DNA from: a virus
Taxonomy: Duplodnaviria; Heunggongvirae; Uroviricota; Caudoviricetes
IMG/VR virus record: IMGVR_UViG_2547132272_000014
Length of the DNA stretch: 20,767 nt
Strand: one strand, 5' to 3'
Position numbers and translations under genes: made by a program. Positions 3,616 to 15,613 of this stretch are shown one piece after another. The notes below the pieces were generated by a model. It saw only the letters and a list, made by a program, of their open reading frames with translations. It did not search any database and had not been told where the DNA came from. Numbering within the stretch: position 1 is the first letter of the stretch; each line of letters begins with the position of its first letter.

Positions 3616-4650
3616 ATGAGCGACACAACGATCCTGCAAAACAGTACCCATGTCATTAAACCAAAAAAATCTGTGGCACTTTCTGGCGTTCCGGCGGGTA
3701 ACACCGCGCTTTGTACCGTAGGCAAAAGCGGCAACGACCTGCACTATCGCGGCTACGATATTCTCGATCTCGCAGAACATTGCGAATTTGAAGAAGTGGC
3801 GCATCTGCTGATCCACGGCAAACTGCCGACCCGTGACGAACTCGCCGCTTACAAAACGAAACTGAAAGCCCTGCGCGGTTTACCGGCTAACGTGCGTACC
3901 GTGCTGGAGGCTTTACCTGCGGCGTCGCACCCGATGGATGTTATGCGCACCGGCGTTTCCGCGCTCGGCTGCACGCTGCCGGAAAAAGAGGGGCACACCG
4001 TCTCCGGCGCGCGGGATATTGCCGACAAACTGTTGGCGTCGCTGAGTTCGATTCTTCTCTACTGGTATCACTACAGCCACAACGGCGAACGCATCCAGCC
4101 GGAAACCGATGACGACTCTATCGGCGGTCACTTCCTGCATCTGCTGCATGGTGAAAAGCCGTCGCAAAGTTGGGAAAAGGCGATGCAAATTTCGCTGGTG
4201 CTGTACGCCGAGCATGAGTTTAACGCCTCCACCTTTACCAGCCGGGTGATTGCGGGCACCGGCTCTGATATGTATTCAGCCATTATCGGCGCGATTGGTG
4301 CACTGCGCGGGCCGAAGCACGGCGGGGCGAATGAAGTGTCACTGGAGATCCAGCAACGCTACGAAACGCCGGACGAAGCCGAAGCGGATATCCGCAAGCG
4401 CGTGGAAAACAAAGAAGTGGTGATTGGTTTTGGCCATCCGGTTTATACCATCGCCGACCCGCGCCATCAGGTGATCAAGCGTGTGGCGAAGCAGCTCTCG
4501 CAGGAAGGCGGCTCGCTGAAGATGTACAACATTGCCGATCGCCTGGAAACGGTGATGTGGGAGAGCAAAAAGATGTTCCCCAATCTCGACTGGTTCTCCG
4601 CTGTTTCCTACAACATGATGGGCGTTCCCACCGAGATTGTGGGGTGGTGA
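3616..4650 (+). pseudogene. prpC: 2-methylcitrate synthase prpC, 3'-truncated by prophage insertion
   Basis: Translation matches PrpC (citrate synthase family) through ...[13 protein letters not shown]. As I recall it, intact PrpC continues MFTPLFVIARVTGW... for about 45 more residues; here the frame reads IVGW-stop, encoded by the first bases of the prophage end. Chromosome/prophage junction is at 4637/4638. Confidence 0.75.
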
Positions 4651-4800
4651 TCAATTCTGGGCGGAGTTCGTGCAGCCTGGTAGAACCTGCAAGCCTTGTG
4701 TGGCGCGGGGTGTGGTGATTTAGTGTGATTCTGGGCGGATTTGTGAGAAATGACCAAAAACGCTTTTTTTTGCGCTTTTTTCTGGGCGCTTTTGATCTGG
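4645..4800 (+). repeat. Left-end array of three direct repeats, candidate transposase-binding sites (analogous to Mu L1-L3)
   Basis: TTCTGGGCGG at 4655-4664 and 4729-4738, and TTCTGGGCGC at 4780-4789; the first two sit in longer matching contexts GGTGAT...ATTCTGGGCGGAnTTnGTG. Offsets of about 18, 92 and 143 bp from the terminus resemble the Mu attL layout. Confidence 0.5.
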
Positions 4801-4949: not shown

Positions 4950-5600
4950 TTATGCTGATTTCTTGTTTACAGGCTTCGTTTCTTGCTCCGGCGTGGCAAC
5001 GGTCTGACCACCTGGCGACCTAGCTCGTATATGAGATTCGATGCGGCGCAAAATCTCTTTGTCAATTTCTTCGTTACCATCTAATGCCATACATATGGCG
5101 TCTTTTAGCGATTCCCTGATGTTCAGGCTTCTGATGGCATTCTCCTGTTCGTCTAGGTCGTTGTAGGCCTGTTTCGCTTGCCTGGTGGGTTGTTGTAGGC
5201 GTTCCAGGACTCCTTTGATACCAATACAACAAAGCATATCAATAAGACGCTCTCTATCTTCTGGAGCGGCTCGTCTTAGTATTTCGTCAACAATACTTGT
5301 ATCGGGGCGGTTAACGTCTTCTGTAGTCACCCTTGATTTTTCTACCATTGGAACACTTCTGTTCTCACCGTAGACCAGCCATTCCAGTGATACATTCTCT
5401 AATTTTGCTATTGTAGCGACCACATTTAGGCCAGGTGTCGTGCCTTTTTCAAAGTAGTTATTTATGGTCGAGTACGGTAATCCCCAGTCTGAGGTGGCTT
5501 TACGCAGGCTCCTGGTGCCAATCAGTTGTTTGATTCTGTCTTGAATGCTTTCTTTTCTATCCTGAGAAAAGGAAAAATCATCAGCGATTTGTTTACTCAT
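4950..5600 (-). CDS. Prophage repressor candidate, N-terminal HTH (XRE/CI-like), 216 aa
   Basis: Minus-strand ORF divergent from ner; AGGA upstream of ATG 5600 on the minus strand; N-terminal segment LRKATSDWGLPYSTINNYFEKGTTPGLNVVATIAKLENVSLEWLVYGE looks like a CI/C2-type helix-turn-helix; no obvious S24 peptidase motif in the C-terminal half. Confidence 0.6.
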   Translation of the reverse strand: MSKQIADDFSFSQDRKESIQDRIKQLIGTRSLRKATSDWGLPYSTINNYFEKGTTPGLNVVATIAKLENVSLEWLVYGENRSVPMVEKSRVTTEDVNRPDTSIVDEILRRAAPEDRERLIDMLCCIGIKGVLERLQQPTRQAKQAYNDLDEQENAIRSLNIRESLKDAICMALDGNEEIDKEILRRIESHIRARSPGGQTVATPEQETKPVNKKSA

Positions 5601-5648: not shown

Positions 5649-5752
5649 CTTTCTTTTCACCAAAGAAAGAAAAGAAAGCTTGTAATTTTCTATTTGTGGA
5701 TCAATACTTATATCCGAAGGGATAACACGGCGGTGTTATCCGCACGGATAAC
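5649..5752. promoter_or_regulatory. Divergent repressor/ner control region with candidate operators
   Basis: Inverted repeat CTTTCTTTTC (5649-5658) / GAAAAGAAAG (5669-5678); palindrome GATAACAC-GGCG-GTGTTATC (5721-5740) plus a third GGATAAC half-site at 5746-5752; located between divergent regulatory genes. Confidence 0.4.
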
Positions 5753-10285: not shown

Positions 10286-10519
10286 ATGCATCAGGATATC
10301 AAAGAGTACAGAGCCAGAAATAGTTGCGCGGCGTATTCGCTGGGCGCGTCCAGAGCAGAACAACGCGGCGATTATGCCGAGGCTGAAAAGCTGTGGCGTA
10401 AGGCAGCGCAAAGCCCGTGTAGCACCCTGCGCCGCATCTGGGCAGAACACCGGGCACAGTTCTGTGCCAATGCTCACCAGAAAGGATGGAAGCCGATTCA
10501 TGAACGCGAAACGCTTTAA
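10286..10519 (+). CDS. Small hypothetical protein, 77 aa, possible small helical regulator
   Basis: ORF track 10175..10519 trimmed to ATG 10286 (overlaps the upstream stop, TAACATG); segment AEAEKLWRKAAQ...RRIW weakly recalls PerC/ANR-type small regulators; unverified. Confidence 0.35.
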   Translation: MHQDIKEYRARNSCAAYSLGASRAEQRGDYAEAEKLWRKAAQSPCSTLRRIWAEHRAQFCANAHQKGWKPIHERETL

Positions 10520-10691
10520 TCAGTTATATCCGCCTGGTACTCGTTTCATGCACATTGCACATCAGGCGGTGCGTGGTGGTCGGGTGGTAAAAACTGTTGC
10601 ACCGGCCAGAGATTTTAAATGTGGTTGTGTGGTTGAAATTAATGTCGAGCCTTATTTCGTAAAAGTCGAAACACTGAAAGCAGCGCATTAA
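10500..10691 (+). CDS. Small hypothetical protein, 63 aa
   Basis: ORF track 10374..10691 trimmed to ATG 10500; overlaps the upstream gene by 20 nt; start uncertain (alternative ATG 10470). Confidence 0.3.
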   Translation: MNAKRFNQLYPPGTRFMHIAHQAVRGGRVVKTVAPARDFKCGCVVEINVEPYFVKVETLKAAH

Positions 10692-10771
10692 TTTAATTTG
10701 TTTTTAATTGTTATTTAAAACAGGCGTAAACCCGCCGGGGCTGGCTTACGCCTGAATCTGAGGGATTCATT

Positions 10772-13045: not shown

Positions 13046-13227
13046 AAACTATCACTGTAACGGTTGAAATCGACGTTCCTGATAACGCAACGGACAATGA
13101 TATTGCTGATTTTGTCGATGTCGAGTATGGAGAGTGCGGAAAAATGGCACTTGATAACCCATGCCGGACAGATGGAACGGAAATACTCGATGCCAGATGG
13201 GAACACGGACCTGATTACGCGGGGTGA
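13042..13227 (+). CDS. Small strongly acidic protein, 61 aa
   Basis: ORF track 12958..13227 trimmed to ATG 13042 (GAGGG upstream; ATGA overlap with the upstream stop); 10 Asp + 5 Glu against 4 Lys/Arg by my count. Confidence 0.4.
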   Translation: MKTITVTVEIDVPDNATDNDIADFVDVEYGECGKMALDNPCRTDGTEILDARWEHGPDYAG

Positions 13228-13231
13228 AAAG

Positions 13232-13483
13232 ATGAGATGGGTTGACATTTTTATTATCGCTCTGATTGTTACGGGTATTGCGCTTTGTGTAACAACTAAC
13301 AAGGCTTCTGATGATGCGGAAAGTGGGCATTGCGTGGTAAGGAGAAATTTCATCAAAACCATTACGCATTGTGATGATGGAAGCGCCACCGTGACCAGCG
13401 GGGATAAGTTTATTTATTGCTCTGCGGGGAAAAATGGCACGCCATCCTGTCATGAAGTGACGCTCGGTGATGGTGATAAATAA
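13232..13483 (+). CDS. Small membrane-anchored Cys-containing protein, 83 aa
   Basis: ORF track 13064..13483 trimmed to ATG 13232; hydrophobic segment WVDIFIIALIVTGIALCV followed by a soluble domain with four more Cys. Confidence 0.45.
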   Translation: MRWVDIFIIALIVTGIALCVTTNKASDDAESGHCVVRRNFIKTITHCDDGSATVTSGDKFIYCSAGKNGTPSCHEVTLGDGDK

Positions 13484-13563
13484 TTCACCACATTGAGCAA
13501 ATAACAATCAAGCGCAGACCAAAACATATGTTTTGGTCTGCCAAAAGTAGTGTTTTGGTCATT

Positions 13564-13842
13564 ATGAAGATTGAACAAGTCGGAATGGCAGCTTTCAGGC
13601 AACAGGCTGAAAGCGGTGGCGTGGATGAGTTCGTCGTGCAGCGGTTCGGTGGTGTGTATCACCTCTTCGCTGTGAATCGCCGCGCCGGGGTGTCCTATTT
13701 TCTACAGGAACGCCGTGGCGATTACAAGACGTGGCTGTCTCTTGACCGTGCCGCCGCGTTCCTGTCGGGGATTGGCGTTTCACGTTTTACCGTGCGTTTT
13801 GAGGATAACAAACATGCTGAAAAAGATGATCGGAGCCATTAA
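13564..13842 (+). CDS. Hypothetical protein, about 92 aa, start uncertain
   Basis: Codon-like ORF 13528..13842 but no convincing RBS at any in-frame start (13528, 13564, 13587); overlaps the GemA-like start by 29 nt. Confidence 0.3.
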   Translation: MKIEQVGMAAFRQQAESGGVDEFVVQRFGGVYHLFAVNRRAGVSYFLQERRGDYKTWLSLDRAAAFLSGIGVSRFTVRFEDNKHAEKDDRSH

Positions 13843-14209
13843 AGCCGGTCAGGCGTATCTGGGGTGGGATGATGCCCTTTATCGCCAGACGCTGGCCCGT
13901 CTGACCGGTAAAACCAGCACCACACGCTGCAATCTCGATGAACTGCGCATCATCCGGGAATACATGCACGAACAGGGATTTCCGCGCAAAGCGCCCGCCG
14001 GTAAAGGTCGCCGCCCCCGTGTTGCAATGAGCAGAAAATCGGTATTATCCAAAATTGAGGCGTTGCTGGCTGATGCCGGTCGTTCCTGGGCGTATGCGGA
14101 AGGACTGGCATCTCACATGTATAAGCAACATGTGATCGAATGGCTGACGGATGAACAGCTTTTTGGGGTGATGGTGGCGCTGGTTAAAGATTCAAGGAGA
14201 CGTAAATGA
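13814..14209 (+). CDS. GemA-like protein (Mu gp16 / DUF1018-like), 131 aa
   Basis: ORF track 13715..14209 trimmed to ATG 13814 with GAGGA at 13801-13805; N-terminus KKMIGAIKAGQAYLGWDDALYRQTLARLTGKTSTTRCNLDELRIIREYMHEQGF matches the remembered GemA-family pattern; lies just upstream of the Mor-family gene as gemA does in Mu. Confidence 0.55.
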   Translation: MLKKMIGAIKAGQAYLGWDDALYRQTLARLTGKTSTTRCNLDELRIIREYMHEQGFPRKAPAGKGRRPRVAMSRKSVLSKIEALLADAGRSWAYAEGLASHMYKQHVIEWLTDEQLFGVMVALVKDSRRRK

Positions 14210-14544
14210 AAAAACTGTTATTACTTATTCTGGCTTTATGTTTTACAGGGATATCCCATGCTTCTGATTCAGAGGAAGATTTGATCAAAAAAACATTACA
14301 GGGCGATTATCAGGCACAACGTAATCTGGCTTATTCATACATGAATGGCTGGGATGATATTTCAAAGGATATCATCAGAGGATGCGCTCTCAGGAAGGTT
14401 ATTCTCTTGACACAAGCCAAAGCTGACATTGGCGATTATGGAAATGAAGCCATAGATTGCCGAAAAGTGCATCCAACAGATAACCAGAAAGTATGGGAAT
14501 ATGTCAGAGGATACCTGGTGTTGATAAACGAGAATAAAAAATAA
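14206..14544 (+). CDS. AT-rich cargo gene encoding a secreted/periplasmic protein, 112 aa
   Basis: ATG overlapping the GemA-like stop (ATGA), AAGGAG at 14194-14199; signal peptide MKKLLLLILALCFTGISHA/SD; about 32-37% GC in the two 60-nt stretches I counted, versus about 55% in neighbours. Confidence 0.5.
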   Translation: MKKLLLLILALCFTGISHASDSEEDLIKKTLQGDYQAQRNLAYSYMNGWDDISKDIIRGCALRKVILLTQAKADIGDYGNEAIDCRKVHPTDNQKVWEYVRGYLVLINENKK

Positions 14545-14551
14545 TATGAAC

Positions 14552-14581
14552 AAAAACCTTCGCAGGCGCGGAGGTTTTTTA
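14552..14581 (+). terminator. Rho-independent terminator at the end of the early operon
   Basis: AAAAACCT ... AGGTTTTT inverted repeat around a GC-rich loop (tcgcaggcgcgg), followed by a T-run; directly after the stop at 14544. Confidence 0.55.
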
Positions 14582-14585
14582 TGGT

Positions 14586-14614
14586 CTGTACAGGCGATCA
14601 TGTATGGCTATAAT
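14586..14614 (+). promoter_or_regulatory. Candidate middle promoter (Pm-like) for the Mor-family gene
   Basis: Perfect -10 hexamer TATAAT at 14609-14614 with a poor -35 (TGTACA at 14587-14592), as expected for an activator-dependent promoter; 30 bp upstream of the mor-like start. Confidence 0.35.
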
Positions 14615-14643: not shown

Positions 14644-15111
14644 ATGCAGACCTTCAGTGAAACAGATCTTCGCGATGCGCAGGCACTGCTGCCCGACTCC
14701 GTGCAGCAACTGATTAGCGTGATTGGCTTCCCCGCCCTGACCCGGTTGATTCGTTCTTTTGGTGGCGTGACGTTAAGCGGTAAAACCGGCGCACACGCTG
14801 AACGCACCGGCGGCGTCCATGCCCTGTTACATGATGTGCTGACCGAAGACGAAATCAACAAACTGATCCGCTTTCTTGGCGGTGCTCCGTTTTACATTCC
14901 CCGTTGCGATCATGCGTTACGTGCCCTGCGTAACACCCGTTTTATGGCTGATTTACAGCGGCATATCAGGGACGGATTCTCACACCGGCAGGCGCTGGCA
15001 CTGCTCTGTCCCCGCTACGGGATTTCAGATCGGTACGCATGGCAGCTGATACACCGACGACAAAAACAGACTTCGCTGAAAAGCCCCACCCAGGTGGGGC
15101 TTTTTGATTAA
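14644..15111 (+). CDS. mor: Mor/C-family transcriptional activator, 155 aa
   Basis: GGAG at 14631-14634; C-terminal region LGGAPFYIPRCDHALRALRNTRF...LALLCPRYGISDRYAWQLIHRRQ matches the Mor/C pattern (GG.VYIP ... YG.S...VY.I..R); positioned after the early terminator as mor is in Mu. Confidence 0.65.
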   Translation: MQTFSETDLRDAQALLPDSVQQLISVIGFPALTRLIRSFGGVTLSGKTGAHAERTGGVHALLHDVLTEDEINKLIRFLGGAPFYIPRCDHALRALRNTRFMADLQRHIRDGFSHRQALALLCPRYGISDRYAWQLIHRRQKQTSLKSPTQVGLFD

Positions 15112-15426: not shown

Positions 15427-15613
15427 TCCATCCAGATAATCAACCTGCTGGGGGTGCTGAACACCCCCAGCAGTACCCACCACACCAGACCGTTTACCCT
15501 GTCCACTCAGACCACAAGGCACCTTAAGGGATAGCGCCCTGCAAAAGGCTTTTGTGCCTTTGACAGGGTGTTATTTACGGGCCGTCAGTGGCTCAGATTT
15601 ACAGGAGAAACTC

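Follow-up and report, generated by a model that had tools for sequence, protein, structure and literature searches.

Genomic Context of the Array

The window, i.e. the whole stretch of 20,767 nucleotides analyzed here, contains a Mu-like prophage that interrupts prpC. Homology to this gene ends at 4637, and the left end of the prophage maps to about 4638, within it. In the listed order the first gene encodes a CI-type repressor (4950–5600, − strand) and is followed by a Ner-like gene, a 680-aa Mu-type transposase, a B-like ATPase, and a run of small accessory genes, several of which are of lambdoid types (Ead/Ea22, DUF2786, DUF3164). The transposase is <50% identical to any in the phage collection, and the phages closest to it by transposase have no ORF92. 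The accessory region, which is variable, ends here with an 83-aa ORF (phrog_8391; 13232–13483, + strand) that is replaced by unrelated genes in other array-carrying prophages. Next come ORF92, the 92-aa ORF led by the array (13564–13842, + strand; a small conserved protein), a GemA-family gene (13814–14209, + strand), and the 112-aa ORF112 (14206–14544, + strand), the three conserved genes with which the early operon ends. Beyond ORF112, the last gene of that operon, lie an intrinsic terminator, a promoter-like site, a Mor-family gene, and the lysis genes.

The terminator of the early operon, AAAAACCTTCGC-AGGC-GCGGAGGTTTTT(T), is found at 14552–14579 on the + strand, about 1 kb 3′ of the array. 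Because it lies downstream, the array is internal to the early transcript, and every gene from ner (5631) through 14544 is on the + strand. On neither strand does a sigma-70-like promoter overlap the array or lie next to it, the sole nearby promoter-like match (13457–13484) being in the non-conserved upstream part. From the co-oriented genes, the downstream terminator, and the lack of an internal promoter, we infer that the array lies on the sense strand inside one transcription unit.

Several other sequence features of the prophage were observed. Directly 3′ of ORF112, the terminator (AAAAACCTTCGC..GCGGAGGTTTTTT) is followed by a palindrome, CTGTACAG (14586–14593), which overlaps the promoter-like site TGTACA-16-TATAAT (14587–14614) just 5′ of the Mor-family gene at 14644; by analogy with t9.2/Pm of Mu, the 14552–14614 region looks like an early-to-middle switch point. 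Two hairpins with perfect 12-bp arms occur at 15079–15104 and 15445–15473; one, AAAAGCCCCACC/GGTGGGGCTTTT, falls within the final codons of the Mor-family gene and resembles a bidirectional terminator, and the other, CTGCTGGGGGTG/CACCCCCAGCAG, follows a 95-aa ORF ahead of the holin genes. Near the left end, a TTCTGGGCG-containing repeat is present in three copies (about 4655–4663, 4729–4737, and 4779–4787), which are probable transposase-binding sites and, to our knowledge, are unrelated to the Mu L1–L3 consensus. The region between the repressor and Ner genes contains two sets of inverted repeats (5649–5678 and 5711–5750), with CTTTCTTTTC/GAAAAGAAAG and GGATAAC-containing arms, that are probably operators. 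Within the early operon, the gap at 10692–10771 folds as three adjacent hairpins (z = −2.3), the central stem of which, CAGGCGTAAAC..GCTTACGCCTG, resembles CAGGCGTAAATCC...GCGCCTG in the distant relative L029 (about 2420–2455), where it sits just 5′ of the CCAAAA array of that relative.

Anatomy of the Array

A reading made from the letters of this DNA only (hereafter the sequence-only reading) had described a palindrome and a repeated half-site in a gap with weak coding evidence. The region is indeed noncoding, and is better described as a true 80-nt intergenic leader (13484–13563) between the 83-aa ORF and ORF92. Its 5′ part (13494–13513, + strand) is A-rich and TTGAGCAAATAACAATCAAG-like, and it is here that homology among prophages with different upstream genes starts. 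The perfect 26-bp palindrome, CAGACCAAAACATATGTTTTGGTCTG, is present at 13515–13540, exactly where it had been placed. In this window the perfect palindrome reaches 28 bp (13514–13541, GCAGACC...GGTCTGC), as the flanking G13514 and C13541 add one pair; relatives keep only the 26-bp core, position 13514 being variable. With 14 complementary pairs, it is the longest perfect inverted repeat of the 20.8-kb window, compared with 8.6 pairs on average and at most 11 for the longest inverted repeat in 60 dinucleotide-preserving shuffles.

The half-site TGTTTTGGTC occurs in exact copies at 13517–13526 (− strand), 13529–13538 (+ strand), and 13551–13560 (+ strand), the last of which had been reported as a direct repeat and is an exact match; no further mismatch-free copy is found elsewhere in the window. 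The earlier count of three half-sites thus stands for exact copies, but it missed a fourth element, CCAAAA at 13541–13546. With this element included, the array consists of four alternating half-sites, CCAAAA (e1, 13519–13524)-N6-TTTTGG (e2, 13531–13536)-N4-CCAAAA (e3, 13541–13546)-N6-TTTTGG (e4, 13553–13558), all given here on the + strand. The first two lie within hairpin I, GCAGACCAAAAC-ATAT-GTTTTGGTCTGC, i.e. the perfect 28-bp palindrome, and the other two form hairpin II, CCAAAA-GTAGTG-TTTTGG (13541–13558). Owing to e3, this second unit (CCAAAAGTAGTGTTTTGG) is an inverted repeat as well, and it is a direct copy of the first at 22-nt spacing with 80% identity over 20 nt. The third exact copy of TGTTTTGGTC also provides the 3′ arm of an alternative long hairpin (see below). 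Only 3 nt separate the 3′ end of the array from the ATG at 13564.

The array resembles a Rho-independent terminator in having a G+C-containing stem-loop with a stem of 12–14 bp and 6 G-C pairs. It differs in that there is no U-tract on the transcribed strand, where CAAAAGUAGUG follows the stem, and has only a weak T-rich tail on the − strand; the operon terminator is 1 kb downstream. The sequence-only reading, which held that this was not a terminator, was correct in this respect. On the − strand, hairpin I together with the U-rich complement of the leader could in principle act as a leftward intrinsic terminator that blocks antisense or read-in transcription into the accessory and early region. 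A − strand scan flags the site (12 pairs, 6 G-C pairs, 4-nt loop, tail GCTTGATTGT), and the tail is moderately U-rich in all five leader types (e.g. CUUUUGAUU in L051). However, most types have only 3–5 U in the first 8 nt, which is weak, no − strand gene or promoter-like site is found to the right within the scanned region, and the conserved second unit (e3 and e4) would be left unexplained. We therefore consider leftward termination very improbable.

As explanations, an operator for a dimeric regulator or an origin-like site had been offered. A replication origin or iteron array is favored by the two direct 22-nt units, a periodicity like that of plasmid iterons, and by a local A+T content of 62–65% versus 40–47% in the flanks. 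Unlike iterons, the units number only two and each is internally palindromic; there is no DnaA box or IHF consensus in 13100–14000 and no Rep-type gene nearby, so the origin-like assignment is not upheld. The prophage also encodes a Mu-type transposase and a B ATPase, and a disrupted host gene flanks it. Transposition is how phages of the Mu type replicate, and replication of this element by the same route disfavors an origin, which we regard as extremely improbable.

Two further candidates were rejected. The array is not a transposase end or enhancer site, as the motif bears no relation to the left-end repeats of ATTCTGGGCGGA type (4655–4787), nor is it a Mor-type activator site, for which a dyad at −43.5 would put the start point 3′ of the ORF92 ATG. 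No motif is common to the array and the promoter-like region before the Mor-family gene, and the hexamers CAGACC/GGTCTG are at chance frequency. The array contains no IHF site, DnaA box, or Dam site.

Distribution and a Mosaic Junction 5′ of the Array

A 67-bp element spanning the array is present in 58 of 5426 complete Escherichia coli genomes, which are the same 58 that match the surrounding prophage segment, at a median of one place per genome. The notion that the motif might be a common chromosomal repeat, which was considered alongside the sequence-only reading, is refuted by this distribution, all carriers having the prophage module; a dispersed palindromic repeat (REP/BIME-like or MITE) is ruled out by the same figures. 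Carriers include EPEC E2348/69 and STEC313, and in the complete related prophage of STEC313 (about 38 kb) the motif is single, at the array site only. No record of the phage collection matches the 67-bp element, no homologues of ORF92 were found in sequenced phages, and we found no mention of the element in the literature. Within IMG/VR the four-element array is restricted to this family and one other contig. The single-unit pattern ACCAAAAS-N4-STTTTGGT gave at least 120 matches there, which are mostly unrelated, and is uninformative.

Most megablast matches to E. coli genomes begin at 13499 or 13506 of the window, just 5′ of the palindrome. Upstream contexts were compared across loci (designated here by L numbers) from genomes, IMG/VR, metagenomes, and read assemblies. 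A common leader of about 70 nt is preceded by at least five upstream gene sets that are unrelated to one another. The alignments of five upstream contexts converge at 13494–13513, and the mosaic breakpoint is about 15–20 nt 5′ of the array.

A hairpin with the arms of the array, ACCAAAAG-TGTC-GTTTTGGT, is also observed in an unrelated lambdoid prophage region (L060, 5941–5982; L075 from E. coli SMN013SH2, around 2620–2645; L082; and L113), placed 3′ of two terminator-like hairpins and 5′ of a Doc-family toxin-antitoxin pair. Two versions of this locus differ by exactly 22 nt, and L060 carries a four-element version with N6/N4/N6 spacings identical to those of the Mu-like array. Outside the searched pattern, L060 and the Mu-like array match at 5 of 20 positions by hand count, which is the chance level; the likeness may reflect convergence or a recurrent way of duplicating hairpin units.

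Evolutionary Origin of the Leader

In L023, L024, and L027 (a Leminorella genome and IMG/VR contigs) the bases homologous to the array are the last codons (...NQINTFGEPK*) of a 124-aa Cys-rich gene, and the spacer before the ORF92 homologue also falls within the homologous stretch. In one frame the E. coli array still reads DQNICFGLPK. The Cys-rich gene itself is absent from the E. coli prophages; in the independent lineages L004, L029, L040, and L041 it has been lost and the homologous stretch has been kept. The array descends from the last ~45 nt of the upstream Cys-rich gene together with the intergenic spacer, which distant relatives still have, and was perfected into a strong palindrome in the E. 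coli clade. In that clade both arms have been extended (GCAGA/TCTGC), and the fourth element, which is GGAATGG or GGATTGG in relatives and thus includes a Shine-Dalgarno-like GGA, has become GTTTTGG. This last change both gave rise to the exact 10-nt repeat and deprived ORF92 of a Shine-Dalgarno sequence. As at least five unrelated gene sets precede one leader and several lineages kept the ~45 nt while swapping their upstream genes, the element would appear to serve, and to belong functionally to, ORF92.

The N-terminal domain of the Cys-rich gene of L024 and L027 has a weak homologue in the window at 10374–10691 (tblastn E of about 1e−4 at 10449–10634), and both genes match phrog_19503.

The same ancestry admits a passive reading, in which the array is what remains of the 3′ end of a displaced gene, made palindromic by intrastrand template switching and without regulatory role, whose short conserved stretch persists as a homology patch for swaps of accessory modules. 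Besides the coding origin of the homologous bases, the mosaic breakpoint about 15–20 nt upstream and the 22-nt indel polymorphism of the lambdoid analogue, in which hairpin units evidently duplicate or delete readily, are in its favor. A passive relic should decay, however, and the arms are conserved far past the neutral expectation while adjacent leader bases and loops diverge (see below). Template switching would homogenize the arms, but it leaves the G·U-type variants and the invariant e3 and e4 unexplained, and efficient RecA-type exchange ordinarily takes more homology than a patch of about 45 nt. A relic that serves as a recombination linker is thus, in our judgment, quite unlikely.

ORF92 and Its Start Codon

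In the E. coli type, ORF92 has no recognizable Shine-Dalgarno sequence, while most neighboring genes have one. Some public annotations start the gene at an ATG in the hairpin loop (13528; 104 aa, 13528–13842) rather than at 13564 (92 aa, 13564–13842). An N-terminal coding extension from ATG 13528 was rejected, as this ATG is absent or out of frame in several haplotypes and the variation of the loop is non-synonymous in both frames. The start of ORF92 is therefore likely to be 13564, and the 104-aa annotation is probably wrong. Mini-ORFs upstream end in a TGA that overlaps the ORF92 ATG (13550–13567); distant relatives do not conserve them, and they lack a Shine-Dalgarno sequence. Opening the ORF92 initiation region takes about 9 kcal/mol, an ordinary value within the operon (5.5–15.9 kcal/mol for its genes), which gives no support to simple occlusion of the start, and strong occlusion was set aside.

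ORF92 belongs to no Pfam family, and its PHROG matches (phrog_7844 and phrog_4595) are both of unknown function. It has no significant sequence match in the PDB and no annotated viral structural neighbor. Structure prediction gives a small α/β protein whose fold is predicted to be closest to that of ribosomal protein eL38.

Conservation of the Arms

Among 23 haplotypes, variation affects 4 of the 34 stem columns, compared with 6 of the 10 columns in the loops and 8 of the 11 immediately 5′ of the array. Within hairpin I the variable columns number 3 of 11 in the left arm and 1 of 11 in the right. In hairpin II all six pairs are invariant among the 12 core haplotypes and four of the six loop columns vary, the loop being hypervariable at 13547–13550. 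Spacer lengths are constant in all intact haplotypes. The contrast is greatest in two divergent loci, L051 and L022, which differ from the window at 37.6% of the third-codon positions of ORF92 and at only one of 34 stem positions, the loop-closing G13530 (binomial P = 2e−6 for each). As the flanks of the leader have diverged in both, a recent transfer of the whole leader does not explain the identity of the stems. The arms of the array are under strong purifying selection, and the element is functional. The array is a selected, non-random cis element and not a + strand intrinsic terminator.

The one-sided stem changes (C13515T, A13518G in two backgrounds, and C13525T) are all in the A/C-rich left arm, and each gives a G·U pair in the + strand RNA where a C·A mismatch would arise in the − strand. 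The G/U-rich right arm, in which transitions would break pairing, is invariant save for the loop-closing base. This wobble bias is based on three or four events. In E2348/69 a compensated pair is seen (C13525A with G13530T), by which C:G becomes A:U. Formal covariation across the haplotypes is not significant against shuffle controls: 98.5% of cells are paired, with one compensated pair and four wobble changes, and the controls often reach these values.

The two 22-nt units evolve in concert, being more alike within than between lineages (six lineages, hand-delimited units, permutation p = 0.003). Such likeness is expected if both units fit one co-evolving protein, and this leads back to an operator-like DNA site, at which a sequence-specific dimeric protein of phage or host would bind the inverted repeat GACCAAAAC-N4-GTTTTGGTC and also the degenerate copy of it, and two dimers 22 bp apart on one helix face would form a roadblock or architectural complex inside the early operon. 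The four half-sites have the fixed spacing of 12, 10, and 12 bp, the arms are invariant with spacers free in sequence and constant in length, the 22-bp phasing puts both units on the same DNA face, and the same arms and spacings recur in the unrelated lambdoid contig L060. Tandem palindromic operators for dimeric repressors are found at lambdoid OR/OL and at P1 phd-doc, which the array resembles in its inverted repeats, fixed spacers, and two sites about two helical turns apart. Unlike these operators, it overlaps no promoter that could be regulated, is present at one locus per genome, and has no cognate DNA-binding protein that we could find. The single site per prophage bears no likeness to the repressor/Ner repeats (GGATAAC, CTTTCTT; 5649–5750) or to the transposase-end repeats, no helix-turn-helix or ribbon-helix-helix protein is linked to it, and the accessory early proteins have no DNA-binding Pfam domain. 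The eL38-like fold predicted for ORF92 is not a known DNA-binding fold. In addition, the left half-site loses its symmetry at three positions in natural variants and the right one at none, and the likeness of L060, with its chance-level agreement outside the pattern (5 of 20 positions, by hand count), may be convergent. The operator assignment of the sequence-only reading thus finds no backing in the promoter, copy number, or repeat data, and we regard an operator-like site as unlikely.

Predicted Folding of the Leader RNA

A 71-nt segment containing the array folds at −24.4 kcal/mol (z = −5.3; none of 200 shuffles is as stable), the dominant RNA feature being the 12-bp stem of hairpin I. The 80-nt gap as a whole gives z = −5.1, the most extreme of six gaps folded. 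As single-stranded DNA, the segment gives z = −5.3 likewise. In distant relatives the homologous stretch is only weakly structured (z from −1.5 to +0.35), and the strong fold is therefore clade-specific and not ancestral. Nothing in Rfam is matched at gathering thresholds, and a local E-value search returned two sub-threshold chance matches; a known RNA family is rejected accordingly.

In addition to the side-by-side hairpins, the + strand can adopt a nested fold (13517–13560), in which 13517–13527 pairs with 13550–13560 (11 bp) and 13531–13536 pairs with 13541–13546 (6 bp, UCUG loop), the two stems being separated by a 3 × 3 internal loop. The computed energies of the nested and side-by-side forms are −23.7 and −23.5 kcal/mol in the window, and the two are isoenergetic in nearly all haplotypes; in the L003/L015 haplotypes the nested fold is the minimum-energy structure. 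Within the hypervariable loop of hairpin II, 13547–13549 vary freely and 13550–13552 (RTG) keep their ability to pair with 13525–13527, a detail that the nested fold explains.

A Proposed Structured Leader for ORF92

The wobble-type changes, the compensated pair, and the retained pairing of the nested fold are few events, but they favor a constraint at the RNA level on the transcribed strand. We infer that selection acts on RNA and not on DNA, and that a post-transcriptional step is controlled. The reading also draws on the place of the array inside the operon, the stability of its fold, the selection on its arms with free loops, its single copy per prophage, the unrelated gene sets 5′ of one leader, and the missing Shine-Dalgarno sequence of ORF92. 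We tentatively propose, at somewhat short of an even chance, that the array is a structured and possibly two-state RNA leader that acts post-transcriptionally. In this model the early transcript would carry four alternating complementary elements in the leader of ORF92. In state 1 these would form two adjacent hairpins, e1:e2 (with the 12-bp stem) and e3:e4; in state 2, e1:e4 and e2:e3 would form one interrupted hairpin of about 17 bp that ends 3 nt 5′ of the ORF92 start codon. The leader would act where the exchangeable accessory genes meet the conserved ORF92-gemA-ORF112 module, possibly as a barrier or a site of processing through which the two mRNA halves come to differ independently in stability, or possibly as a gate on initiation at the Shine-Dalgarno-less start of ORF92. 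Against the model stand the weak structure of the stretch in distant relatives, the ordinary opening energy of the ORF92 start, the non-significant covariation, and the lack of an Rfam match. The invariant arms fit sequence-specific protein recognition equally well, and a two-site binding protein explains the concerted evolution and the 22-bp, one-face spacing at least as well as the RNA model does.

Similar elements are known from other phages. The early mRNA of T7 has RNase III sites, and the N leader of lambda has an RNase III-sensitive hairpin; the array is like these in being a stable hairpin of roughly 17–20 bp that contains an internal loop and separates cistrons of a long early transcript, in lying directly 5′ of a start codon, and in being conserved while neighboring non-coding bases drift. 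It is unlike them in that it can also fold as two hairpins and has no sequence relationship to them. In com-mom of Mu, a structure inhibits translation and the target of Com overlaps com. The parallels are a Mu-type phage with adjacent stem-loops just 5′ of a start codon and, in the distant relatives, an array that overlaps the 3′ end of a Cys-rich (zinc-finger-like) gene. In contrast to com-mom, the array is in the early operon before gemA rather than in the late mom operon, the E. coli prophages have no Cys-rich gene, and the start region opens at an ordinary energy cost. In kind the element is familiar, though its place is new; no new mechanism is required.

A more specific version, which we consider a long shot, is that the 22-nt units constitute a two-state RNA switch bound by the ORF92 protein itself, which would autoregulate the translation or stability of ORF92-gemA-ORF112. 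Were this so, the units would have evolved in concert because they co-evolved with ORF92, and the early operon of a Mu-like phage would end in a post-transcriptional checkpoint. Post-transcriptional control in Mu-type early operons has been little studied and the genes of the GemA region are poorly understood; the 47-nt element, with its natural variants and its presence in well-studied strains including EPEC E2348/69, offers an easy experimental handle. If the structured RNA leader is the correct reading, these prophages would possess a compact, strongly selected leader that insulates the conserved regulatory tail of the early operon (ORF92, GemA, and ORF112) from whichever accessory genes are recombined in upstream.
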